The notes: generated by a model not told the origin, from the letters alone. A DNA stretch of 64,000 nt from Spirochaetota bacterium (GCA_031549085.1 JAVBQL010000018.1:13917-77916), one strand, 5' to 3'. Counted from the first letter of the stretch, positions 7,928 to 46,964 are shown. Translations and numbers: made by a program.

Positions 7928-8938
7928 ATGGAAATATATGTGAATATTAGATCTATTTTATCTCTTTTTCTTATTTTTTCTGCATTAACAATATTAAATA
8001 GTATAGACTATGATTATATAGGTGAGTATATAGAGGAGTTGGCTTTAGTTAAGCAAAATGATAGATGGGGCTTTATCGATAGAAAAGGAGAGATTGTAGT
8101 TGCTCCAAAATTTGATGCAGCCTACCCTTTTTTTGAAGGTTTGGCATGTGTAGAGCTTTATGGAAAGTGGGGGGCGATAGATATATATGGGGAAATTGTA
8201 GTTCCAATTATTTATGATGAACTTTTCTCCTTTTTTGATGGGGTAATTAGAGCAGAACTTGATGGAAAGTATGGTTTTATATATAATAGAGATGGGGAGA
8301 TTGTGACCTCACTTATATATGATCGTTGGTTAGATTCCCGTTCAGAGGGATTGGTTCTAGTAAGTCAGGATGGTATGTGGGGTTTAGTAGATAGGAGTGG
8401 CAGAGAGGTAGTTCCTCTAAAATACCATGAAGCAGAATCTTGTTATAATGGACTTATCAAAGTTAAACTTAATGGTAAATATGGCTTTATAGGTATAGAT
8501 GGTGTAGAGATAATTCCAATTAAATATGATTATGTAGACTTTTTTTTCTTAGAAAAGTTGATTAAAGTTAAACTTAATGGCAAATATGGCTTTATAGATA
8601 TGGATGGTGTCGAGGTAGTATCCATTAAATATGATTATATAGACTTTTATTGGTGGAGAGAGTTGATTAAAGTTGCACTTAATGGTAAATATGGTTTTTT
8701 AAATAGAAGTGGTGTTGAGGTAGTTCCTTGCATATATGATTATGCGGACTCTTTTTATGATGAGATTACCAGAGTTAAATTAAATAGGAAATATGGTTTT
8801 ATAGATAGAGATGGTGTCGAGGTAATTCCCTCTATATATGATGATGCAGACTCTTTTAGAGATGGAAAAGTTAAGGTAAAGTTGGATGGCAGATGGTTTT
8901 TCATAGATAGAGAGGGAAATAAGATATCAACATATTAA
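7928..8938 (+). CDS. secreted WG-repeat (KWG-like) protein
   Basis: Signal peptide, then about 8 repeats of ...GKYGFID..G.EVVP.KYD....F.....VK.. (WG-containing repeat). Confidence 0.6.
   Translation: MEIYVNIRSILSLFLIFSALTILNSIDYDYIGEYIEELALVKQNDRWGFIDRKGEIVVAPKFDAAYPFFEGLACVELYGKWGAIDIYGEIVVPIIYDELFSFFDGVIRAELDGKYGFIYNRDGEIVTSLIYDRWLDSRSEGLVLVSQDGMWGLVDRSGREVVPLKYHEAESCYNGLIKVKLNGKYGFIGIDGVEIIPIKYDYVDFFFLEKLIKVKLNGKYGFIDMDGVEVVSIKYDYIDFYWWRELIKVALNGKYGFLNRSGVEVVPCIYDYADSFYDEITRVKLNRKYGFIDRDGVEVIPSIYDDADSFRDGKVKVKLDGRWFFIDREGNKISTY
8452..8900 (+). repeat. about 120-bp intragenic tandem repeats (3.7 copies, near-identical) inside the WG-repeat gene
   Basis: aaagttaaacttaatggtaaatatggctttata... 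recurs with few substitutions at about 8452, 8572, 8692 and 8812. Confidence 0.6.
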
Positions 8939-8990
8939 GTGAAAAATTAATAAAATAGATATAATGATAATTTTTTAGGAAAAAAAAGAG

Positions 8991-9899
8991 ATGATAAAAG
9001 AGTTTAATATTACTATAGATGATCCAAGCTTAGTTGATAAGAGATTGGATTTGGTTCTCTCAGAGAAAACCGATCTCACAAGATCTCATGTAAAAAAATA
9101 TCTAGAAAATCTAACAGTTAATGGCAAAAAAGAAAAATTATCTTATAAATGCAGAAATAGAGATAAAATATTCTTCTCATACATCTATGAGGAGAGCGAG
9201 AAAATTCTCCCAGAAAATATACCAATAGATATTGTCTATGAAGATGATAACTATCTTATAATAAATAAGGAGAGCGGGGTTGTAACCCACCCTGCCAAAG
9301 GCAACTGGAGTGGAACGCTTTTAAATGGAGTTTTGGGTTTAAAAAAAGAGCTCTCATCTCCTAAAGAAGATTATCGAATGGGTATTGTCCACAGACTTGA
9401 TAAGGATACAAGCGGGCTTATAATCCTTGCAAAAAACAATAGTGCCCATAGCTACCTTCAAGAGCTCTTTGCTAAGAGAAAAATTAAAAAATATTATAAA
9501 GCTATTGTTAAAGGGTTCGTAACACCATCAATATTCACAATAGAGAATATGATTGGGCGTGACCCAAAAAACAGAAAAAAGATGGCTGTTGTAAACTCAA
9601 AAGGAAAAGAGGCTATTACAAAAGTCAAAGTTATGAAGAGGCTTAAAGATTACTCATATCTATTGATAAAACTTGAGACAGGTAGAACCCATCAGATAAG
9701 AGTTCATCTATCAAATCTTAAATATCCAGTTTTGGGAGATCCTATCTATGGCAGAAAAGATAAAAAATATGATGATATAAAACTATGCCTCCAATCTTTT
9801 AGACTCTCCTTTTTTGATAAATTTACCAATAAAGTTATAGATATCAAAATAGGGTTGCCTAAACATTTTAAAAGAGTTATTATTGAGAATAAAAATTGA
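8991..9899 (+). CDS. rluD: RluA/RluD-family pseudouridine synthase
   Basis: S4-like N-terminus and catalytic HRLDKDTSGLIILAK motif. Confidence 0.75.
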   Translation: MIKEFNITIDDPSLVDKRLDLVLSEKTDLTRSHVKKYLENLTVNGKKEKLSYKCRNRDKIFFSYIYEESEKILPENIPIDIVYEDDNYLIINKESGVVTHPAKGNWSGTLLNGVLGLKKELSSPKEDYRMGIVHRLDKDTSGLIILAKNNSAHSYLQELFAKRKIKKYYKAIVKGFVTPSIFTIENMIGRDPKNRKKMAVVNSKGKEAITKVKVMKRLKDYSYLLIKLETGRTHQIRVHLSNLKYPVLGDPIYGRKDKKYDDIKLCLQSFRLSFFDKFTNKVIDIKIGLPKHFKRVIIENKN

Positions 9900-22044: not shown

Positions 22045-24036
22045 ATGAAAAAATTTGAAGTACACTCCAATTTTGATCCCTCTGGAGATCAAGCTGTTGC
22101 TATAGAAAAACTCTCATCAAACCTTATTAAAGGTATGGAGAATCAAACTCTTCTTGGTGTTACTGGTTCTGGAAAGACCTTTACTATGGCAAAGGTTATT
22201 GAAAAGATAAATAAACCAACCCTTATAATATCTCATAATAAGACTCTATCAGCACAGTTGTACCGTGAGTTTTGTGATTTCTTTCCAAATAATGCTGTTG
22301 AATACTTTGTAAGCTACTATGACTACTATCAGCCTGAAGCATATGTGCCTTCGAAAGATCTCTATATAGAGAAGGATGCCTCTATAAATGATGAGATTGA
22401 TATGATGCGCCTCTCTGCAACAAGCTCTCTTTTAGAGAGAAATGATGTAATTGTTGTTGCAACTGTATCCTGTATATATGGACTTGGAAGTCCAACAACA
22501 TATAGAAATATGAGTATCAATCTTGAAGTTGGTGCTAATTATGGCAGAGAGCAGCTAATATTGGATCTGGTTAGGATACTCTATGAGAGAGATGATAATA
22601 TTTTTGATAGATCAAGATTTCGTGTTAGAGGAGATATAATAGATATTTTTCCAGCATATGTGAAAACAGGAATACGTGTTGAGTTCTTTGGTGAAACAAT
22701 AGAGTCAATAAAGAGGTTTGATATATTAAATAATTCTGTAACTGAAAACATTAACAAAATAACAATTTTTCCTGCAAAGCACTTTGTCTCTGGACGAGAT
22801 GCCATTCTTAAAGTTGTACCAGAGATAAAAAAAGATCTTGAAGTTAGAGTAGGTGAACTGATAAAAGAGGGAAAGGATCTTGAAGCAAAGCGGCTTAAAA
22901 CCAAGATAGAGTATGATATTGATATGATGCTTGAGGTTGGCTACTGCAAGGGAATAGAGAACTACTCAAGATATTTTGATGGAAGAAAAGTTGGGGCTAA
23001 GCCCTCTACACTTCTAAACTTTTTTCCCAAAGATTTTTTACTATTTATTGATGAGTCTCATGTTACAATTCCACAGATTGGCGGGATGTATGAGGGGGAT
23101 AAGGCTAGAAAAAGTACATTGGTAGAGTATGGTTTTAGGTTATCATCAGCACTGGATAATAGACCACTATTTTTTGAAGAGTTTACTGCAATGCTTAATC
23201 AAACGGTCTTTGTTTCGGCAACTCCTAGAGAGTATGAACTTGGAAAAAGCGGAGCTATTGTTGAGCAAATTATTAGACCAACTGGTTTAATAGATCCTGA
23301 AATTATTGTAAAACCTACAGAGAGACAGATGGATGATCTCTTGAATGAGATATCAGTTGTTGTTGATAGGGGAGAGAGGGTTTTGGTAACCACCCTAACA
23401 AAGAGGATGGCAGAAGATTTAGCGGACTTCCTATCACAAAAGGGTGTAAATGTTAGGTATCTTCACTCTGATATTGAGACAATTGAGAGAGTTGAAATCC
23501 TTCAGGAGCTTCGAGAGGGTGTAATTGATGTACTTATTGGAATAAACCTCTTAAGAGAGGGGCTTGATCTACCTGAGGTATCTTTGGTTGCTATACTTGA
23601 TGCTGATAAGATAGGTTTTTTAAGATCAACAACATCTTTGATACAGACCATTGGGCGTGCAGCTCGTAATGTTAATGGTAAAGTTATTATGTATGCTGAC
23701 CGTTTTAGTGACGCTATGAAGGTTGCCATAACAGAGACAAAAAGACGCCGTGCTCTTCAAAGAGATTATAATGAAAAACATGGTATCACACCAAAGAGTA
23801 TAGAGAAAAAGCTCTCTGTTATGCTTGAGAGACAGAAAAAGCTTGAAATTCAAGAGGAAGAGCATGAAATGGCAGAGATGAAAACAAAGTTCAACCTACT
23901 CGATACTAAAGCTCGAGAAGAGTATGTAAAGATATTAAGAAAAAAGATGCTTGAAGCAGCAGAATCTTTGGAGTTTGAGAAAGCAACAGTATTAAGAGAT
24001 GAGATAAGAAAAATAGAGAAAGGAGATATTTCATAA
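22045..24036 (+). CDS. uvrB: excinuclease ABC subunit B
   Basis: Walker A GVTGSGKTFT, helicase motifs, beta-hairpin region, C-terminal UVR domain (ATVLRDEIRKIE). Confidence 0.9.
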   Translation: MKKFEVHSNFDPSGDQAVAIEKLSSNLIKGMENQTLLGVTGSGKTFTMAKVIEKINKPTLIISHNKTLSAQLYREFCDFFPNNAVEYFVSYYDYYQPEAYVPSKDLYIEKDASINDEIDMMRLSATSSLLERNDVIVVATVSCIYGLGSPTTYRNMSINLEVGANYGREQLILDLVRILYERDDNIFDRSRFRVRGDIIDIFPAYVKTGIRVEFFGETIESIKRFDILNNSVTENINKITIFPAKHFVSGRDAILKVVPEIKKDLEVRVGELIKEGKDLEAKRLKTKIEYDIDMMLEVGYCKGIENYSRYFDGRKVGAKPSTLLNFFPKDFLLFIDESHVTIPQIGGMYEGDKARKSTLVEYGFRLSSALDNRPLFFEEFTAMLNQTVFVSATPREYELGKSGAIVEQIIRPTGLIDPEIIVKPTERQMDDLLNEISVVVDRGERVLVTTLTKRMAEDLADFLSQKGVNVRYLHSDIETIERVEILQELREGVIDVLIGINLLREGLDLPEVSLVAILDADKIGFLRSTTSLIQTIGRAARNVNGKVIMYADRFSDAMKVAITETKRRRALQRDYNEKHGITPKSIEKKLSVMLERQKKLEIQEEEHEMAEMKTKFNLLDTKAREEYVKILRKKMLEAAESLEFEKATVLRDEIRKIEKGDIS

Positions 24037-29567: not shown

Positions 29568-29571
29568 TATG

Positions 29572-29643
29572 AGCGAGAAACGGGACTTGAACCCGCGACA
29601 TCCACCTTGGCAAGGTGGCGCTCTACCACTGAGCTATTCTCGC
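29572..29643 (-). tRNA. tRNA-Gly (anticodon GCC)
   Basis: Manually folded cloverleaf: acceptor GCGAGAA/TTCTCGC, anticodon loop TTGCCAA, U73. Confidence 0.8.
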
Positions 29644-29654
29644 GGTTATAAACA

Positions 29655-29736
29655 TGCGAGCGAAGGGACTTGAACCCCCACACCTCTCGGCACTAGATCC
29701 TAAGTCTAGCGTGTCTGCCAATTCCACCACGCTCGC
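29655..29736 (-). tRNA. tRNA-Leu (anticodon TAG), long variable arm
   Basis: Acceptor GCGAGCG/CGCTCGC, anticodon stem CTAGA/TCTAG, loop CTTAGGA, long variable arm, A73. Confidence 0.75.
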
Positions 29737-29747
29737 AAAAAAAACAC

Positions 29748-29820
29748 TGATCCGTAAAGGATTCGAACCTTTGACCCGCAGATTAAGAGTCTGCTGCTCT
29801 ACCAACTGAGCTAACGGACC
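29748..29820 (-). tRNA. tRNA-Lys (anticodon CTT)
   Basis: Acceptor GGTCCGT/ACGGATC (one G-U pair), anticodon stem GCAGA/TCTGC, loop CTCTTAA. Confidence 0.75.
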
Positions 29821-29826
29821 GTTTAA

Positions 29827-29900
29827 CGCGTCCGACAGGACTCGAACCTGCGACCATCGGATTCGAAGTCCGGCACTCTATCCAGCTGAGCTACAGACGC
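29827..29900 (-). tRNA. tRNA-Arg (anticodon TCG)
   Basis: Acceptor GCGTCTG/CGGACGC, anticodon loop CTTCGAA. One mismatch at 27-43. Confidence 0.65.
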
Positions 29901-29908
29901 AATATCTG

Positions 29909-29981
29909 GGTGAATGAAGGGATTCGAACCCTCAACAACCAGAACCACAATCTGGGACTCTACCGTTGAGCTACATCCACC
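29909..29981 (-). tRNA. tRNA-His (anticodon GTG) with encoded G-1
   Basis: Extra 5' G pairs with C73. Anticodon stem CCAGA/TCTGG, loop TTGTGGT. Confidence 0.75.
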
Positions 29982-29990
29982 AAGTTTTTT

Positions 29991-30063
29991 CGCGCCAACC
30001 AGGAATCGAACTTGGGACCCACAGCTTAGAAGGCTGTTGCTCTATCCGCTGAGCTATTGGCGC
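29991..30063 (-). tRNA. tRNA-Arg (anticodon TCT)
   Basis: Acceptor GCGCCAA/TTGGCGC, anticodon stem ACAGC/GCTGT, loop CTTCTAA. Confidence 0.75.
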
Positions 30064-30073
30064 AATCATTTAT

Positions 30074-30149
30074 TCGGGATGGAGGGATTTGAACCCCCGA
30101 TCTTCTGCTCCCAAGGCAGACGCCTTGAACCGGGCTAGGCCACATCCCG
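30074..30149 (-). tRNA. tRNA-Pro (anticodon TGG)
   Basis: Acceptor CGGGATG/CATCCCG, anticodon stem TCTGC/GCAGA, loop CTTGGGA, A73. Confidence 0.75.
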
Positions 30150-37405: not shown

Positions 37406-38536
37406 ATGGATTTAAAAATCTCTGTCAAAGATTATAAGAAAATTAGAGATGCAAAGGTAGATATAGTTGGACTTACTATGGTTAAGGGGGACAACTCTGC
37501 TGGCAAGTCTACTCTCATAAAAGCCTTAAGATCCTTTATTTTGAACCAGTATAGCCCATCATCCAATCGTTATGGCACTTCTAAAGCAGAGGTCTATGTT
37601 AAGGTAGGAGACGAAGAAGTTACTGCCATAAGAACAGACTCTACTTCTTATATCTATAAGGAACAAACTTTTTCAAAATTAGGTAGGGATAATCTTTATA
37701 AGATTATCCCAGCTTTTCCTTTAAGGGTACTAGAGCTTAATGATGATAAGTTTATGCCTAATTTTGTATTTCAAAATGAGATACCAATTTTTGGACAGGT
37801 AGATATCTATAATCTGTTCAGTTCTATGTTTAAGGTTTACTCAGATCTATCAGGCAAGTTACTAGAGATTAAAACTACCAATAGTCAAAATAATAAAAAG
37901 CTAGACTCTCTTTTGGAGAGTAATGAGAATTATCAGGTTGAATTAAATAAGATAGAGCAGTTTATTAAGAATCACTTTATTTATGAACATGAGTATAATC
38001 AATACCTCGTATATGAGGAACTCAAAGTACAAAGTGATAGACTTGAAAATGGGTTAGGACAGATCCAAAATCTGCTGGACAGTCCAATTTCAGCTGATCG
38101 AAGTTTAAGAGATATGCAGATCTACGAGGGCTATAATTTTAATGGACTTGAGTCTTTTGTTGCTTTTGCAAGTAAGTTTTCTATGTTAGCAGAGGCTTAT
38201 ATTTCCAATCAACGTGATATACAGGCTCTACAAGAGGTTGAAGATAGTGAAAAAGTGTGTAGGGATCAGCTGGAGTTTTTAGAGGCTTGTCAGCATTATA
38301 ATGAATTATCTTTAGAAATTGATGAGTTAAACAATTCATTAGTTCTTGAGTTTTTTATACGAGAAAGTTCAAAAATTTTATGTCTTATTAAGCAGTATTG
38401 TAGCAATGATTTATCAATGGCTCAATTGGTTTCAGATATATCTCAATTAGAGAATGAGATATATGCCATTGAAGATGAGTTGGCTAATTATGATATATGT
38501 CCACTTTGCAATCAGGAGTGGGAGCATAAACATTAG
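37406..38536 (+). CDS. Rad50/SbcC-like ATPase, N-terminal head and coiled coil ending at a CxxC zinc hook
   Basis: Walker A GDNSAGKST, long heptad-rich region, CPLC motif 9 codons before the stop. Confidence 0.6.
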   Translation: MDLKISVKDYKKIRDAKVDIVGLTMVKGDNSAGKSTLIKALRSFILNQYSPSSNRYGTSKAEVYVKVGDEEVTAIRTDSTSYIYKEQTFSKLGRDNLYKIIPAFPLRVLELNDDKFMPNFVFQNEIPIFGQVDIYNLFSSMFKVYSDLSGKLLEIKTTNSQNNKKLDSLLESNENYQVELNKIEQFIKNHFIYEHEYNQYLVYEELKVQSDRLENGLGQIQNLLDSPISADRSLRDMQIYEGYNFNGLESFVAFASKFSMLAEAYISNQRDIQALQEVEDSEKVCRDQLEFLEACQHYNELSLEIDELNNSLVLEFFIRESSKILCLIKQYCSNDLSMAQLVSDISQLENEIYAIEDELANYDICPLCNQEWEHKH

Positions 38537-38545
38537 GAGATTACT

Positions 38546-38779
38546 ATGTCAGCAGGTGCAATAGCAGAGATAGAGAATTTACAGAGTAGACTCAATAAAA
38601 ATATAGTTCTTTTAGAAGAGCGAAAAAAGAGACTAGAGTCTCTTATACAAGATCAGATGCAGGTAACTTCAGAATTGGAGTTGCTATTAAAAGATAGATA
38701 TATCAATAAAACAACGGAAGAAGCAATAGAACTAGAGTACGAGAGAATAAAGAGAGAGATAGTTACTTTTAGTATTTAA
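38546..38779 (+). CDS. Rad50/SbcC-like coiled-coil fragment (separate ORF with its own RBS)
   Basis: 77 aa, entirely heptad/coiled-coil. AGGAG 7 nt upstream of the ATG. Confidence 0.45.
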   Translation: MSAGAIAEIENLQSRLNKNIVLLEERKKRLESLIQDQMQVTSELELLLKDRYINKTTEEAIELEYERIKREIVTFSI

Positions 38780-38830
38780 TATTTTATGTTGTGTATAATT
38801 TATTTAGAAATTTATTTTGGGTAATTTATT

Positions 38831-39718
38831 ATGTTAGATTTTGTTAGTTATGATTTTAAAAATTTAAATATCATTTTAGGTAAATTTAATAATATTTTAA
38901 GAGATAAAAATAATTATATTAATTTTAAGAATTTAAGTGAAAAAGAAAAAAAGATTTTAAGTGAAAAAGAGTCGGTGTCCATAGAATTGTCAGCATATGC
39001 TGACAGGGAGTGGACACCTAATTTATTACAGATAGTTAAAGATTTAAATTACAATCGAAGCAGAAAAATAGAGATAGATACGAATATAGCTAAACTTGAT
39101 ATTTCAATTGAAGAGTTAAAAAAGATACTTAAGCTTGATGACAAAGCTTTTAAGTTCTTTTCCTTTATGTTGGACAAGATGACAGAGAGGTATATCCAGT
39201 CTTTTGAGAAGTCTCTTAACGAGATCTATTATTTTGTTTATAGGGATGAGTCTAAACAGATACGACTGGACTCTACAGAGAGCAGAGGTAAAAAAGTTTT
39301 GAAACTAAAGATATGCTCTATTGTAGATGGTAAAACTTATGAAGAGGACATTCAAGATAGTGGTCATTCTGTTTCAGTGGTTTTAGGTAGTGTTCTATTG
39401 GTTTACTATATTGTCTACTGTAAGCTTCCAAGAATACTATTTTTTGATGAGACTTTCAGCGGTCTCTCTACATTAACCATCAGTCGCTTCTTTCAGTTGC
39501 TACAAAACTTTTCAAAAGATTTAGGTTTCAAGTTTCTTATTATATCTCACGATCCCCGCATTGTCAATTTCATGGATCGTATCTATCTGGTTAAGGACGG
39601 GGTCTATTCTTTGGTTAAAGAAAATCTAGATGATGAAGTCCAATCTTTTTTGGAAGATTTAGCTGATGGTTCTACTGAGGGCTTTAGTGTTAGTGACAGC
39701 AATACAGTTGGGGGGTAA
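38831..39718 (+). CDS. Rad50/SbcC-like ATPase, C-terminal coiled coil and head
   Basis: Coiled-coil N-terminus, then an SGH (signature-like) motif, Walker B ILFFDETFSG and D-/H-loop ...LIISHDP. Confidence 0.55.
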   Translation: MLDFVSYDFKNLNIILGKFNNILRDKNNYINFKNLSEKEKKILSEKESVSIELSAYADREWTPNLLQIVKDLNYNRSRKIEIDTNIAKLDISIEELKKILKLDDKAFKFFSFMLDKMTERYIQSFEKSLNEIYYFVYRDESKQIRLDSTESRGKKVLKLKICSIVDGKTYEEDIQDSGHSVSVVLGSVLLVYYIVYCKLPRILFFDETFSGLSTLTISRFFQLLQNFSKDLGFKFLIISHDPRIVNFMDRIYLVKDGVYSLVKENLDDEVQSFLEDLADGSTEGFSVSDSNTVGG

Positions 39719-40002: not shown

Positions 40003-40266
40003 ATGTTTAGAATTAGAAAGATTGAGTATAGACGATTTGCATTAGGGCTTACAAGAGGCAACTTAATTCATAATTGTAAGTTAGCCTCTTGTAAAGTAGG
40101 ATCTTCAGCGTGCAGTCTTTGTCCAAATTATCTCTTTACAATAGGCAAATATCTCTTTTGTGGAAATAAGAAACTTACTTTTGTTAAGTGTCCTAGAGTT
40201 AAAGCTACAGCTGTTATGTGTTTTCATAGTTCAAAGTGTGATATGTGTGATGTTCAGAGGGCTTAA
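40003..40266 (+). CDS. Cys-rich small protein (putative zinc-binding)
   Basis: 11 Cys in 87 aa, including CSLC and CDMC pairs. Confidence 0.35.
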   Translation: MFRIRKIEYRRFALGLTRGNLIHNCKLASCKVGSSACSLCPNYLFTIGKYLFCGNKKLTFVKCPRVKATAVMCFHSSKCDMCDVQRA

Positions 40267-40268
40267 AA

Positions 40269-40682
40269 ATGGATGATAGAAAGATAGATGAGTCAGGTTT
40301 TAATCCTGTTGATAACATAAAGCTACCTCCAAAAACTTATAAAACTAATCATAAGGACTACTATGAAAGAAACAAGTCTAAAAGTATTAATCGAGCGAAT
40401 AATCATTACCATTTTTGGAAAAATACAGCTCAAAAAATAGCCAAAGTTTATGATGAATTTGTGAGAAAAATGGGTGTTGTTTTTGTTAGAAAAGGAAACC
40501 TCTGGGGCGTTATTAGTTTGGAGATGGATGAGTTGATTCCATGTGTATATGATAGCATTGTTTCTTATTCTGTTAAAACAGGAGTGGCTATTGTCTTATA
40601 TGAGGGTAGTTGCCGTACCGCCAATAAGGATGGTTTAATAGAGTCAGTTATTTCCAATGGGTTTAGGGATAATAAAAAATAA
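40269..40682 (+). CDS. small protein with a WG-type repeat
   Basis: KGNLWGVISLEMDELIPCVYDSI matches the WG-repeat consensus seen in the host gene at 7928. Confidence 0.35.
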   Translation: MDDRKIDESGFNPVDNIKLPPKTYKTNHKDYYERNKSKSINRANNHYHFWKNTAQKIAKVYDEFVRKMGVVFVRKGNLWGVISLEMDELIPCVYDSIVSYSVKTGVAIVLYEGSCRTANKDGLIESVISNGFRDNKK

Positions 40683-40717
40683 GTTGAGATTGAGTAGCTA
40701 AAAGGGAGGGTTATTTT

Positions 40718-41065
40718 ATGGACTCTAATAAAAAGAAAGCTGATGTAGTTGCTAATCTTGAGGTTTTTCAGACATTGATTAGTGATAGAACATCAAAAAT
40801 AGAGAGTTCTTCTGATTATGCAAATTCTAATTCACTTTTAGAATTTCAACAAGATTTAGGTAATTTTAGCTTAATAGATTTCATTGAGTTGCTGTGTAAA
40901 TGGCTATATGAGTTTAGAGAGGAGTTCTCTTCAAGTAATGTGGATTTGCTTTTTAGCTTTTTAATACAGAGAGCTAGAGAGTATAAGATGTCAGATGACT
41001 TATTCACAATGGTTTTAAGAACCTTTGATTTGTTATATTTCTATGATGGAGAGGCAGATAAGTAA
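40718..41065 (+). CDS. hypothetical protein
   Basis: 115-aa ORF. Confidence 0.3.
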   Translation: MDSNKKKADVVANLEVFQTLISDRTSKIESSSDYANSNSLLEFQQDLGNFSLIDFIELLCKWLYEFREEFSSSNVDLLFSFLIQRAREYKMSDDLFTMVLRTFDLLYFYDGEADK

Positions 41066-42053
41066 AGTGAAAAAAACTAAACTAAGATTTGATTGGAATG
41101 GAGATAATATTTTAGATAGAAAAACTATATTTTTGAATTGGTTGCATAGTAAATCTTCATACAAGTACAAAAGGTATTTGGGATCTCCTTTGAGATATGG
41201 TGGTGGAAAATCTTTAGCAGTTGGAAATATTATTGAGCTTTTACCAGAAAAAATAACAAAAGTTGTCAGTCCATTTATTGGTGGAGGTTCTGTTGAAATT
41301 GCAATTGCTAAAGAACTTGCTATACCAGTAATTGCTTATGATGTTTTTGATATGTTAGTTAACTATTGGCAAATACAAATTAGTAATCCTCAAGGATTAT
41401 ATGAATTTTTAACAAATCTCAAACCAACAAATGAAGAGTATGACAGAGTAAAGAAAGAACTTTCAAATCATTGGAATAAAAAAGATGGGTATTTAGGTGG
41501 ACTTGACGATTTGGAGAGAGCAGCGTACTATTTTTTTAATCATAATTTATCATATGGTCCTGGATTTTTAGGTTGGATGTCTTCTATATACAAAAATGAA
41601 AAAAGATATATTAGTATGATTGAAAAAGTGAGAGATTTCAAAATAGACAATATGCAAGTTTTTTGTGAAAATTTTGAGAATTCTATTTCTAAACATAATG
41701 AAGATTTTCTTTATTTAGATCCGCCATATTTTTTGGATGGAGATAGTAGGATGTTTAAAGGAATTTATCCTATGAGAAACTTTCCAATACATCATAACAA
41801 GTTTAGACACGATGTTTTGGCTGAATTACTAAAAAAACATAGAGGTGGCTTTATATTATCTTATAATGATTGTAGTTATGTGAGAGAAGCTTATAGAGAT
41901 TTCAATATTGTTGAGGTAGAGTGGCAGTATACAATGGGACAGGGAGAGACTCGCATTGGTAAAAACAGATTAGAACGTGAGTATGATAATGGGAATGTAA
42001 AATCATCACACGAACTATTAATTATAGGAGAAATAAAAAATGAAAATCTCTGA
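41025..42053 (+). CDS. dam: Dam-family N6-adenine DNA methyltransferase (D12 class), orphan
   Basis: Motifs YGGGKS (compare WAGGK), SPFIGGGSVEI, YLDPPYF (DPPY), about 45-aa N-terminal extension. No adjacent endonuclease. Confidence 0.8.
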   Translation: MICYISMMERQISKVKKTKLRFDWNGDNILDRKTIFLNWLHSKSSYKYKRYLGSPLRYGGGKSLAVGNIIELLPEKITKVVSPFIGGGSVEIAIAKELAIPVIAYDVFDMLVNYWQIQISNPQGLYEFLTNLKPTNEEYDRVKKELSNHWNKKDGYLGGLDDLERAAYYFFNHNLSYGPGFLGWMSSIYKNEKRYISMIEKVRDFKIDNMQVFCENFENSISKHNEDFLYLDPPYFLDGDSRMFKGIYPMRNFPIHHNKFRHDVLAELLKKHRGGFILSYNDCSYVREAYRDFNIVEVEWQYTMGQGETRIGKNRLEREYDNGNVKSSHELLIIGEIKNENL

Positions 42054-42153
42054 AGTAAAGACCGCTTTTAAAATTGCAGACAAGTTGTTATTAGAAGAAA
42101 TAGAGGTTGTAGAAATCTAAAAACAGGGGGTAATAGCATGACAACAGAAAAGA

Positions 42154-42516
42154 TTGAAAATGGTGATTTTGATGAGGAGGATATATGAGAAAACCTATAT
42201 ATATAGAATAGGTATCAAAATATATAGACTAATCCAAAATTGGATATTAGAAATAAAGCGAAGAAGGTTAATAAAAATATTAAGAGGATTAGGCTATAAC
42301 TGGTGGGGGAAATTAGCTAAAAAGTCAATCCTCTCTGCTTATGGAGTTATTATTAAAACTCAAGATCCCTGCACTAAAAAGTGGGGATATGTGTATAAAA
42401 ATGACAATTCTTTAGCAATTGACATAATATTTGATGAGATTGTTTGGTATGATCGAGGTTTGTGTTTAGGGTTGAGAGATGGAGAGATATTATATTCAAA
42501 TATTATGTCTAGATAA
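42154..42516 (+). CDS. hypothetical protein with WG-like motif
   Basis: ...TKKWGYVYKNDNSLAIDIIFDEI.... The true start is probably internal. Confidence 0.3.
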   Translation: MKMVILMRRIYEKTYIYRIGIKIYRLIQNWILEIKRRRLIKILRGLGYNWWGKLAKKSILSAYGVIIKTQDPCTKKWGYVYKNDNSLAIDIIFDEIVWYDRGLCLGLRDGEILYSNIMSR

Positions 42517-42605
42517 TTAATAGAAAAAACAAAGTGAAAAATTGACTACAATCACTTGTTAAGTGCTAGTAGTCAATATAAAGGATTTTTAAAGGGAGTA
42601 AAAGA

Positions 42606-42920
42606 ATGAAAGTATTTATCAGTAATGGATTAAGAGACAAAGAGAATCCAAAAGAGTATGTTGAGAGATGCAGAAAAGTAGTTGAAGAGGAGATGGCAAA
42701 GTTATTTCCAGATGAAACTATTGAGAGAATTGATACCTATTTTGAGGATTTTAATGGGAACAGACTACAATTTTTAGGTAAGTCAATTATGGAAGGGCTG
42801 GCGGTGTGTGATGTTGCTGTCTTTATGGATGATTGGCAATGGTTTGAAGGTTGTAGAAGTGAACATTTCATTGCAACACAGTATGGGATACCTTGCTATT
42901 ATTTTAGCACAAAGAATTAA
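42606..42920 (+). CDS. DUF4406-like (nucleoside 2-deoxyribosyltransferase-fold) protein
   Basis: MKVFISNG...LAVCDVAVFMDDWQWFEGCRSEHFIATQYGIPCYYF tracks the DUF4406 consensus (MKIYIAGPM...CDAIALLPGWE.S.GAR.E...A..LG.PV). Confidence 0.55.
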   Translation: MKVFISNGLRDKENPKEYVERCRKVVEEEMAKLFPDETIERIDTYFEDFNGNRLQFLGKSIMEGLAVCDVAVFMDDWQWFEGCRSEHFIATQYGIPCYYFSTKN

Positions 42921-42933
42921 GAAGTGGTGTCTA

Positions 42934-42965
42934 CCCAACTGAATTATCCATTCAGTTGGGTTTTT
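42934..42965 (+). terminator. intrinsic terminator
   Basis: CCCAACTGAAT-tatcc-ATTCAGTTGGG followed by TTTTT. Confidence 0.7.
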
Positions 42966-46007: not shown

Positions 46008-46964
46008 GTGAAAATTATAGTAGTTGGAGATCCACATTTCTGGGATAGAGATATTTCAAGCAGATGTGATAACTATCAAGACACTTCAATCAATAAGTTA
46101 AAACAAGTTGTAGAGTATCAAAAAAGATATCAAGTGGATTGTGTAATCTTTTTGGGGGACTTTTTTCATGCTCCCCTAACCTCCAAAGAGTATTTAAATG
46201 AGTTGGTTTTGGAACTTAAAAAGTTTCAGTGTCCATTGTACACACTAGTCGGAAATCATAGGGGCGATCAGTCTTATAAAGATTGGAGGTCTTTTGAAAA
46301 GAAAGATTTAGGGACTCTAGTTTTCACTGGTGTTTTAAATATTTTATTAGCATATGAGAGTAGCAATGGGTCTATTGTAGGTATGTCAGCTTATGAAACT
46401 TTATATGATGTTCTATTTGAGATGAATAGATACACCGAGACAACCAAGCCAATTAAAAATGAAGCTATACATATTTTAGCTTGCCACCACTTTATAAAAG
46501 GCAGTGGCTCTTCTTTTGAGGATGATTTAATTTTAGATGTCTCAGAAGTTAAACAAACTTTTCCTAATCTCAAATATATTCTGGCAGGCCATGATCATGC
46601 AAAGTATGATACAAAAATAATTGATGGAGTTAAGATAATACGACCTGGAAGTTTGATGAGAACATCATCAGCTGGGGATCAAGATAGAAATATATGTGTT
46701 GCTTATCTTGATACAGATATGGATATAGTTGAATATCTACCTATCTCTTCTTTAGCTTATAAATCTCTTTTTGTTAACAAGGATCATAAAAAAGATATTC
46801 AAGATAAAATGATGATAGATCAAATTGTATCTAATTTTTCAAACGGTGACAATTTAGATACAATTATGGCAGAGGATTTATTAAAGGAGTCGGTTGAACA
46901 GATTGATAATCTGGAAATCAGAGACTATATAAAAAGTATTTTAAGAAGTATGGGGGTTATTTAG
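46008..46964 (+). CDS. Mre11/SbcD-like calcineurin-fold phosphoesterase (GTG start)
   Basis: Metallophosphatase motifs GDPHF, GDFFH, GNHR, ACHH, GHDHAK in canonical order. Confidence 0.65.
   Translation: MKIIVVGDPHFWDRDISSRCDNYQDTSINKLKQVVEYQKRYQVDCVIFLGDFFHAPLTSKEYLNELVLELKKFQCPLYTLVGNHRGDQSYKDWRSFEKKDLGTLVFTGVLNILLAYESSNGSIVGMSAYETLYDVLFEMNRYTETTKPIKNEAIHILACHHFIKGSGSSFEDDLILDVSEVKQTFPNLKYILAGHDHAKYDTKIIDGVKIIRPGSLMRTSSAGDQDRNICVAYLDTDMDIVEYLPISSLAYKSLFVNKDHKKDIQDKMMIDQIVSNFSNGDNLDTIMAEDLLKESVEQIDNLEIRDYIKSILRSMGVI

Follow-up and report, generated by a model that had tools for sequence, protein, structure and literature searches.

A probable phage orphan of an HpyAORF481P-type restriction-modification cassette, with a stub of its endonuclease gene

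Phages T4 and P1 carry orphan DNA methyltransferases (T4 Dam and P1 Dam), and other orphan methyltransferases derive from restriction-modification systems. Systems of the HpyAORF481P type, represented by Helicobacter pylori HP0481/0482, Campylobacter upsaliensis CupORF237P and cyanophage S-PM2, contain a methyltransferase (MTase) of the alpha class of family PF02086, and Kaminska et al. (2008; PMC2630997) describe the pairing of such MTases with endonucleases of the R.HpyAORF481P branch, seen in phage S-PM2 as well as in H. pylori and C. upsaliensis. In the bacterial systems the endonuclease gene follows the MTase gene, its start overlapping or abutting the MTase gene end. The large phage described here encodes an MTase of the same alpha-class family in the same gene order as these bacterial systems, and the first 14 residues of the stub that follows it match the N-terminus of the endonuclease family; it differs from the HpyAORF481P systems in that its endonuclease gene appears to have been deleted after about codon 14, leaving no working restriction-modification system. 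It also differs from the cyanophages and from locus L007, where the nuclease gene is intact and lies upstream of the MTase gene. With the orphan phage MTases it shares the lack of a working endonuclease and the expected self-protection of phage DNA; unlike T4 Dam and P1 Dam, however, it scores below the TIGR00571 cut-off and is not established as a Dam orthologue, and its restriction-modification origin is directly visible as an endonuclease stub, which is unusual.

The locus lies in a window of 64,000 nucleotides, the whole stretch of DNA that was analysed, which is part of a longer phage contig (at least 182 kb; 181,980 bp). The region of interest, 40003-42965, is part of a block of small accessory genes of about 6 kb, bordered by homologues of rad50 and mre11, with the following features:

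37406..39718, + strand: Rad50/SbcC homologue, split into three ORFs (phrog_77, AAA_21/SMC_N matches); upstream border of the small-gene block
40003..40266, + strand: 87-aa basic protein (pI 9.8) with nine cysteines, including CSLC and CDMC pairs; GGGAGG ribosome-binding site
40269..40682, + strand: basic protein of 137 aa carrying a single putative, degenerate WG-type repeat (residues 79-113)
40718..41065, + strand: 115-aa acidic ORFan (pI 4.4), predicted all-helical; strong ribosome-binding site; codon score 0.40
41043..42053, + strand: D12/alpha-class DNA MTase of the M.HpyAORF481P family, 335-336 aa; intact ORF
42040..42120, + strand: stub of 26 codons left from the gene of the cognate GIY-YIG endonuclease; homology covers codons 1-14, and the rest is unrelated
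42160..42516, + strand: 118-120-aa basic ORF, start uncertain, with a KKWGY...FDEI motif, filling the former endonuclease space
42541..42577, no strand assigned: imperfect 17-nt inverted repeat (I4), dG -14.2, lying 3' of the 120-aa ORF and 5' of the DUF4406-like gene
42606..42920, + strand: 104-aa minimal DUF4406 / nucleoside 2-deoxyribosyltransferase-fold protein (phrog_355 E=3.3e-9; AF2 fold)
42933..42961, + strand: intrinsic terminator with a 12-bp perfect stem, 5-nt loop and T5 tail, dG -17 kcal/mol, ending the gene run
46008..46964, + strand: Mre11/SbcD-like phosphoesterase (phrog_100 E=2e-9, Metallophos E=9e-16); downstream border

A preliminary description of this DNA had placed six ORFs, counted without the stub, between Rad50-like genes and a strong terminator at 42934, and this outline was borne out: all six were found on the + strand at the positions it gave, each scoring highest in its own frame in a codon-usage test, the upstream genes are a split Rad50/SbcC homologue, and the terminator is real. 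Against the long ORFs of the window, which average 0.29 +/- 0.06 bits/codon, the codon scores of the 87-aa ORF (0.05 bits/codon) and of the N-terminal half of the 120-aa ORF (0.06) are weak. The small-gene block between the rad50 and mre11 homologues spans about 6.2 kb. A repeat search found no mobile-element-type repeats flanking the cassette. No relatives of the phage were found in IMG/VR with its UvsX-like and Rad50 C-terminal proteins as queries, a metagenome scan returned only RecA-like proteins at 25-28% identity, and a 10-kb megablast query had no match in the phage collection. From its gene context the rad50-mre11 block may be variable, no close relative of the phage having been found in which empty and filled sites could be compared.

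The MTase matches Pfam PF02086 over the full domain (profile positions 1-253 of 253, E=2.3e-37, 129.5 bits, threshold 22), in agreement with its earlier assignment to the D12 class, and the PADLOC model PDLC03281 MTase_II across residues 24-329 (E=8e-121). It has 3992 homologues, the best of which are 65-79% identical and come from many phyla; identity is 56-57% to the H. pylori loci and 44% to the cyanophage copies, including that of S-PM2. All 70 invariant family columns are kept (70/70, alignment A4), among them the SAM-binding FIGGGS (FxGxG), which lies N-terminal to the catalytic DPPY ((D/N)PP(Y/F)). The ORF is full length, contains no frameshift or stop, and has a normal codon score of 0.29, like the phage's long genes. 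By these sequence comparisons it is a genuine and intact alpha-class member of the M.HpyAORF481P family. The likely start is the ATG at 41043 or 41046, whereas the preliminary description had used a TTG far upstream (41025) and reported an extra N-terminal extension of 45 residues. That segment is present but is not an addition: part of it follows from the upstream TTG, and about 25 residues preceding the motif GSPLRYGGGK show conservation among the bacterial homologues, which makes the segment typical of the family.

The partner of this MTase family could be recognised from three independent metagenomic bacterial contigs, in which a conserved protein of 183-202 aa is encoded directly 3' of the MTase gene. 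Campylobacter and Helicobacter members of the partner family are named 'type II restriction endonuclease' by NCBI, the partner profile matches R.Hpy188I (PDB 3OQG) with E=3.6e-5, and the partner is homologous to the GIY-YIG nuclease adjoining the cyanophage MTases (E=1e-28 to 1e-38). On this homology the partner is a GIY-YIG type II restriction endonuclease of about 200 aa, which within the Hpy188I family falls in the R.HpyAORF481P branch. R.Hpy188I recognises TCNGA; the partner lost from the phage, of which only 14 codons survive, falls in another branch of that family and is paired with an alpha-class rather than a gamma-class MTase, so its specificity need not be TCNGA.

In the phage, the position of this gene is taken by the short ORF at 42040-42120, whose sequence MKISEVKTAFKIAD corresponds to the partner N-terminus at 13 of 14 residues in the bacterial locus L009 and 12 of 14 in L010, in syntenic position. 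The partner gene is intact in both loci, at 1759-2361 in L009 and at 5933-6541 in L010. The nucleotide alignment of the MTase region with L009 (41088-42080, 79.6%) is continuous, crosses the junction between the two genes and ends at 42080, and the partner profile matches the stub at positions 1-20 only (E=0.002). These agreements identify 42040-42120 as the remnant of the cognate endonuclease gene, deleted after about codon 14. The preliminary description had noted that the MTase lacks a cognate endonuclease, which is correct in that neither an intact endonuclease gene nor any other match to the partner profile occurs within the 64-kb window of the contig of at least 182 kb, but it had missed the stub. 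It had also named recognition of the MTase as half of a complete restriction-modification pair elsewhere as grounds for refuting its reading; this holds for the family, whose members normally pair with a GIY-YIG endonuclease. In the window the endonuclease is a stub and the MTase is now an orphan.

Comparable decay is found in other genomes. Among 80 genome loci, the partner downstream of the MTase gene is intact in 44 and fragmentary in 14; another 20 lack a partner although 700 nt or more of flank is available on either side, and two without one have too little flank to judge, so that the endonuclease has decayed in 34 of the 80 (14 fragmentary plus 20 without). About a quarter of the genome loci of this MTase family are therefore without an endonuclease, and another sixth retain it only in fragments. 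An independent endonuclease stub, of 38 codons, is present on the viral contig L006.

The phage MTase is quite probably the orphan of a restriction-modification cassette of the HpyAORF481P type, of which the modification gene was kept and the restriction gene lost, the neighbouring genes being unrelated to it. A whole type II cassette, with the MTase gene followed by that of a GIY-YIG endonuclease of about 200 aa, would have arrived in the phage; deletion of the endonuclease gene after about codon 14 would have left the 26-codon stub 3' of the MTase gene, and unrelated DNA, including the 120-aa ORF, would now fill the former endonuclease space. The MTase would methylate phage DNA at the target site of the cassette and thereby shield it from cleavage by the cognate endonuclease, an enzyme distributed widely among bacteria and archaea. 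As the preliminary description proposed, the MTase is solitary in the window and intact, with its invariant residues kept and no intact endonuclease beside it, and it is plausibly protective; that it is active and shields the phage is our inference from these features. If so, the locus would show with unusual clarity how phages can acquire a protective orphan MTase, through capture of a cassette and loss of its toxic endonuclease with a scar of 14 codons left behind; current understanding is unchanged by it, as the derivation of orphan MTases from restriction-modification systems is already well known.

Two other readings of the MTase itself were weighed. MTase and stub could together be an inert relic, a decaying cassette without current function, which would fit the destruction of the endonuclease gene and the frequency of fragmentary cassettes among the 80 genome loci, as well as the H. 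pylori methylome paper, in which no motif is assigned to HP0481/jhp0433, suggesting that some family members may be silent. However, a full-length frame free of frameshifts and stops, the retention of every invariant residue and a codon usage matching that of the phage's own long genes are not what a relic would lead one to expect, and we regard this reading as improbable. It is similarly doubtful that the enzyme is a true Dam, methylating GATC for phage physiology (replication, packaging or transcription control, as in P1 and T4) rather than for escape from restriction. Its D12 class with a DPPY motif, the label 'DNA adenine methylase' on relatives in database records and the absence of GATC depletion would agree with a Dam, as the preliminary description had called it. 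GATC, the motif whose depletion that description proposed to check, occurs 179 times in the window against 186 expected (zero order) and is therefore not depleted, a result that is uninformative on GATC methylation; in the region there are five occurrences against about eight expected. The match to the NCBIfam Dam model TIGR00571, by contrast, reaches 75.4 bits, below the cut-off of 114.85, E. coli Dam is a remote relative (E=4e-4; DpnM, E=1e-12) to which the stretch from motif I to DPPY aligns poorly in the HMMER alignment, the family partner is a GIY-YIG endonuclease unrelated to GATC enzymes, and in H. pylori GATC is assigned to another gene, the beta-class hp0092, according to the methylome literature. 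The closest solved structure is that of M.CbeI, an alpha-class N4-cytosine enzyme (E=7e-16), so that even the base modified by the phage MTase is uncertain. Neither the name Dam nor the GATC target that goes with it is thus established, and the present analysis corrects an annotation that would probably lead to a wrong prediction of GATC methylation. No target sequence for the HpyAORF481P family was found in the literature searched; several palindromes are depleted in the window (GGCC, GCGC, CATG, CTAG, CTNAG and CCNGG), a pattern that cannot identify the MTase target.

The preliminary description further suggested an anti-restriction or DNA-modification island, in which the six genes would be coordinated and the small proteins might be new anti-defence factors working with the MTase. 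The genes do share a strand, follow one another closely and end at a single strong terminator, the 3' end of the acidic 115-aa ORF overlaps the start of the MTase gene, and the DUF4406-fold protein shares its superfold with TIR/ThsB and with nucleotide N-glycosidases, proteins that act in or against immune signalling. Tight packing, however, is common to the whole 6-kb rad50-mre11 block, which has the same architecture, and is therefore not specific to these six genes. The neighbours recur beside the MTase in none of 7 viral, 3 metagenomic bacterial and 80 genome loci, so that no shared gene order supports a functional island, and the overlapping 115-aa ORF is an ORFan. None of the four small ORFs matches an anti-defence family in PHROGs, Pfam, NCBIfam or PADLOC, libraries that cover only part of such families, and relatives of the DUF4406-like gene occur in structural, Mu-like or ParB phage contexts without an MTase. 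A coordinated island consequently has little probability in our view. Nothing positive links the small neighbours to evasion of restriction, no relatives or signatures of that kind having been detected, and there is only a slim chance that one or more of the small lineage-specific proteins is a new anti-defence factor, for which the 115-aa ORFan would be the best candidate, or that the DUF4406-fold protein destroys or sequesters a defence nucleotide.

Beside the orphan MTase, the 87-, 137-, 115- and 120-aa ORFs are lineage-specific genes without an assignable function. The 87-aa protein is Cys-rich as described before, its nine cysteines including two CxxC pairs, and may, judging from this composition, bind zinc; it has no match in Pfam, PHROG, NCBIfam or PADLOC and no relative in IMG/VR. 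The 115-aa ORF likewise has no relative in IMG/VR, and an exhaustive HMMER search of 1.84 billion representative proteins returned itself as the sole match; its single-sequence AF2 model, with a pLDDT of 62, is too low in confidence to use for a fold search. Among 50,697 phage records, tblastn found no match to the ORFs of 87, 137 and 120 aa. Two of these ORFs had been associated with WG repeats. The 137-aa protein has one putative repeat of this kind. An HMM made from the nine-repeat WG protein of the phage picks out the 137-aa protein as its best non-self match (E=0.025), but the repeat stays below the Pfam threshold (WG_beta_rep, PF14903: E=1.1e-4, 22.6 bits, threshold 25.6). In the 120-aa ORF, KKWGY...FDEI resembles a WG repeat without statistical support, neither Pfam nor the phage-specific WG HMM detecting one; the ORF has no match in Pfam, PHROGs, NCBIfam or PADLOC, and it may be a gene fragment. 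The two ORFs are not detectable as paralogues (BLASTP E=0.72).

The last gene of the run had been assigned to DUF4406, a call that holds for the fold but hardly for the sequence, which matches Pfam PF14359 at only 14.4 bits (E=0.05, gathering threshold 22). The AlphaFold2 (AF2) model has a pLDDT of 95.7, and its best match in BFVD, which collects structures predicted for viral proteins, is a DUF4406 protein (E=1.3e-8, TM 0.83), followed by a deoxyribosyltransferase (E=1.2e-7, TM 0.82), both at 37% identity. The phage protein thus has the same fold as DUF4406, nucleoside 2-deoxyribosyltransferase and DNPH1-like phage proteins (phrog_355), and compared with the PF14359 family it is a minimal form of 100 aa; among its 103 homologues of about 100 aa, the Pfam call is made in one. 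The literature searched gives no function for DUF4406. In our reading this small phage gene is mobile and independent. The best PDB matches of the protein, TIR/ThsB and the BcmB N-glycosidase, are both weak. Binding or cleavage of a nucleotide is its probable activity. Across 66 homologues Glu86 does not vary; it stands in a G-C-x-x-E context that resembles the catalytic Glu motif of the superfamily, and by this likeness of motif it is a candidate for the catalytic Glu nucleophile.

Six ORFs had been described here as a candidate anti-restriction or DNA-modification island, an orphan Dam methyltransferase with small neighbours ahead of a strong terminator. All six were reproduced on the positive strand and the terminator is real. 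A codon-usage score trained on 27 long ORFs of the window (long-ORF mean 0.29 ± 0.06 bits/codon) ranked the proper frame highest for 6/6 ORFs, with values well under the mean for the 87-aa ORF (0.05) and the N-terminal half of the 120-aa ORF (0.06).

Features of the region and its flanks (ORFs of the gene run from the ORF listing)
37406-39718, Rad50/SbcC homologue, split into three consecutive ORFs
40003-40266, + strand, 87-aa ORF
40269-40682, + strand, 137-aa ORF
40718-41065, + strand, 115-aa ORF
41025-42053, + strand, methyltransferase, 342 aa counted from the first TTG
42040-42120, endonuclease stub, a tiny ORF (MKISEVKTAFKIADKLLLEEIEVVEI, then stop) matching the N-terminus of the partner endonuclease, MKISDVKTAFKIADVELIEGS...
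42154-42516, + strand, 120-aa ORF, start ambiguous
42606-42920, + strand, 104-aa ORF
42933-42961, terminator, 12-bp perfect stem, 5-nt loop, T5, dG -17 kcal/mol
46008-46964, Mre11/SbcD-like phosphoesterase

In three independent metagenomic bacterial contigs (L009, L010 and L014), a 183-202-aa protein is encoded immediately 3′ of a homologous methyltransferase, that of L009 being 79% identical to the window enzyme. These partner proteins share 57-65% mutual identity and have no Pfam, PADLOC or NCBIfam match; their profile matches R.Hpy188I (PDB 3OQG), a GIY-YIG type II restriction endonuclease (E = 3.6e-5), and their conserved pattern VYLIVVDGxIxKIGGS...GRPSxRS...KKxExY would fit a GIY-YIG nuclease. 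Members from Campylobacter and Helicobacter carry the NCBI annotation "type II restriction endonuclease". The partner also has a homologue (E = 1e-28 to 1e-38) in T4-like cyanophages, a gene annotated "GIY-YIG nuclease" or "endonuclease" that abuts a related methyltransferase from upstream, whereas the partner lies downstream in the bacterial contigs. The R.HpyAORF481P branch of the Hpy188I family, with members in H. pylori 26695 and J99, C. upsaliensis and cyanophage S-PM2, pairs with alpha-class PF02086 methyltransferases (Kaminska et al. 2008, PMC2630997).

The first 14 residues encoded at 42040-42120 match the partner N-terminus at 13/14 positions for L009 and 12/14 for L010, and the partner profile matches the stub at positions 1-20 (E = 0.002). 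At the DNA level, L009 and the window align without a break (79.6% identity) between 41088 and 42080, a span that crosses the methyltransferase stop and reaches codon 14 of the partner. Homology goes no further, and the rest of the partner gave no profile match downstream, upstream or anywhere else in the 64-kb window. These alignments identify the ORF as the start of the cognate endonuclease gene and its sole portion in the window. The preliminary description, which reported no cognate endonuclease, was correct that the window holds no intact gene, but missed the stub. The 120-aa ORF fills the space vacated by the deleted gene. Just 3′ of the stub and overlapping the start of the 120-aa ORF, a 16-codon ORF (42138-42188, MTTEKIENGDFDEEDI) has a good GGGGG ribosome-binding site and is too short to judge.

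Among 80 family loci from the species-representative genome collection, the partner is intact, directly downstream and on the same strand in 44, fragmentary in 14, absent despite flanks of 700 nt or more on both sides in 20, and absent with flank too short for judgement in two. The nuclease is intact upstream in one of seven IMG/VR loci (L007), and five of the seven have no nuclease trace. The 45-kb IMG/VR contig L006 carries an independent 38-codon GIY-YIG endonuclease stub (592-708) 3′ of a homologous methyltransferase, a parallel loss of the endonuclease with the methyltransferase kept. What happened in the window is thus what usually becomes of such a cassette: the methyltransferase persists and the endonuclease is lost. 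A protective role for the orphan is a reasonable reading, strengthened because the restriction-modification scar is visible. Another IMG/VR contig (L005, 78 kb) encodes two D12-class methyltransferases in tandem (8001-9688), the second sharing just 27% identity with the enzyme described here.

The label "D12-class Dam" is right as to class, but its Dam part is not supported and is probably a mislabel. D12/alpha membership is solid (PF02086, E = 2.3e-37; phrog_56, E = 1.5e-38), and 70/70 invariant columns of an alignment with ten homologues are kept, including FIGGGS and DPPY; the NCBIfam Dam model scores 75 bits, under its cut-off of 114.85, and similarity to E. coli Dam is weak (E = 4e-4). 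Among solved structures the best match is M.CbeI (7M6B, E = 7e-16), according to its depositors an alpha-class N4-cytosine methyltransferase yet with a DPPY motif, and the top library match by far is the PADLOC type II model PDLC03281 (E = 8e-121, residues 24-329). The family is large (3992 matches at E ≤ 1e-10) and unusually conserved, with 65-79% identity to proteins of Rickettsiales, Capnocytophaga, Endomicrobiaceae, Cloacimonadota and Patescibacteria and 52-71% across the 80 genome loci, which include many Helicobacter and Campylobacter and several DPANN archaea. The supposed extra 45-aa N-terminal extension is not borne out: TTG 41025 falls within the preceding ORF, gene callers start at ATG 41046 or 41043, and the ~25 residues ahead of GSPLRYGGGK (DRKTIFLNWLHSKS..YKYKRY) are conserved in bacterial homologues, this segment being missing from cyanophage copies only.

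Neither methylome motif assignments nor palindrome counts in the window identified the methyltransferase target. HP0481/jhp0433 has no motif assigned in either of two H. pylori methylomes, and GATC, whose depletion had been proposed as a check, shows no avoidance across the window (179 observed vs 186 expected at zero order; Markov ratio 0.69). CTNAG is depleted (61 observed vs 170 expected, ratio 0.36), as are GGCC (0.32), GCGC and CCNGG (both 0.42), CATG (0.50) and CTAG (0.53) over the whole window, a pattern that suggests restriction pressure, perhaps at sites outside the reach of the phage's own methyltransferase.

The preliminary observations were largely right, but the island and Dam readings are not supported. 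Across the 7 viral, 3 metagenomic bacterial and 80 genome loci compared, none has the window's neighbour genes beside the methyltransferase, and relatives of the 104-aa ORF are set elsewhere; the "island" consists of accessory genes that are unrelated and simply lie side by side. The 104-aa ORF has 103 homologues of ~100 aa (PF14359 in 1/103) and an invariant Glu86. Its alignment-based structure model is excellent (pLDDT 95.7) and matches viral proteins annotated as DUF4406 or deoxyribosyltransferase (E = 1.3e-8 and 1.2e-7; TM 0.83 and 0.82), with weak PDB matches to TIR/ThsB and the BcmB N-glycosidase; the modelled fold agrees with the original DUF4406 (deoxyribosyltransferase) call. Its relatives lie in an SU10-like structural module, in a Mu-like region, near ParB/VRR-NUC genes and, from a sequence reading, beside a putative RuvC-like gene; no methyltransferase adjoins them at the loci examined. 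In the gap 5′ of this gene, a 17-nt imperfect inverted repeat (42541-42577, dG -14 kcal/mol) could be an internal terminator or operator.

The acidic 115-aa ORF is well expressed as judged by codon score, was without relatives in a search of 1.84 billion cluster representatives, and gave a single-sequence structure model too weak for use (pLDDT 62). No library, IMG/VR or phage record matches the Cys-rich 87-aa ORF. The two proposed WG proteins fare differently: the 137-aa ORF has one repeat, just below the Pfam threshold, and is the best non-self match (E = 0.025) of an HMM of the window's own nine-repeat WG protein, but a WG repeat in the 120-aa ORF lacks statistical support, and the two ORFs have no detectable similarity (E = 0.72). 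The nine-repeat protein (7928-8938; 336 aa, hydrophobic N-terminus then tandem repeats, Pfam E = 9e-78) comes from the one gene of the window whose WG repeats are well supported.

The window (32% GC, nearly all genes on one strand) also encodes a UvsX/RecA-like recombinase, a clamp loader and a seven-gene tRNA array (Gly, Leu, Lys, Arg, His, Arg, Pro; 29571-30149, - strand). In the split Rad50/SbcC homologue, the N-terminal ATPase half terminates in CPLCNQEWEHKH, a CxxC motif resembling the zinc hook, and is followed by a 77-aa ORF that looks like coiled coil and then by the C-terminal ATPase half. In T4-type phages, rad50 and mre11 adjoin each other; here the Mre11-like gene lies 6.2 kb beyond, not adjacent, and ~17 small ORFs fill the ~6.2 kb between. 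The positions of these flanking genes place the six-gene region inside this run. Exact-sequence look-ups matched the genes to a Logan contig of 13.6 kb and an NCBI contig of 181,980 bp. Searches of the phage collection, IMG/VR and metagenomes yielded no close relative of the window phage for comparing the block. A full-length UvrB-like protein (22045-24036), set in an otherwise large-phage-looking genome, shares 54-56% identity with UvrB sequences from records of the phage collection, several of them containing bacterial DNA. A 465-aa protein (1143-2540) weakly matches phosphoadenosine-phosphosulfate reductase (phrog_2302, E = 1e-5), a fold sometimes tied to DNA modification in phages.
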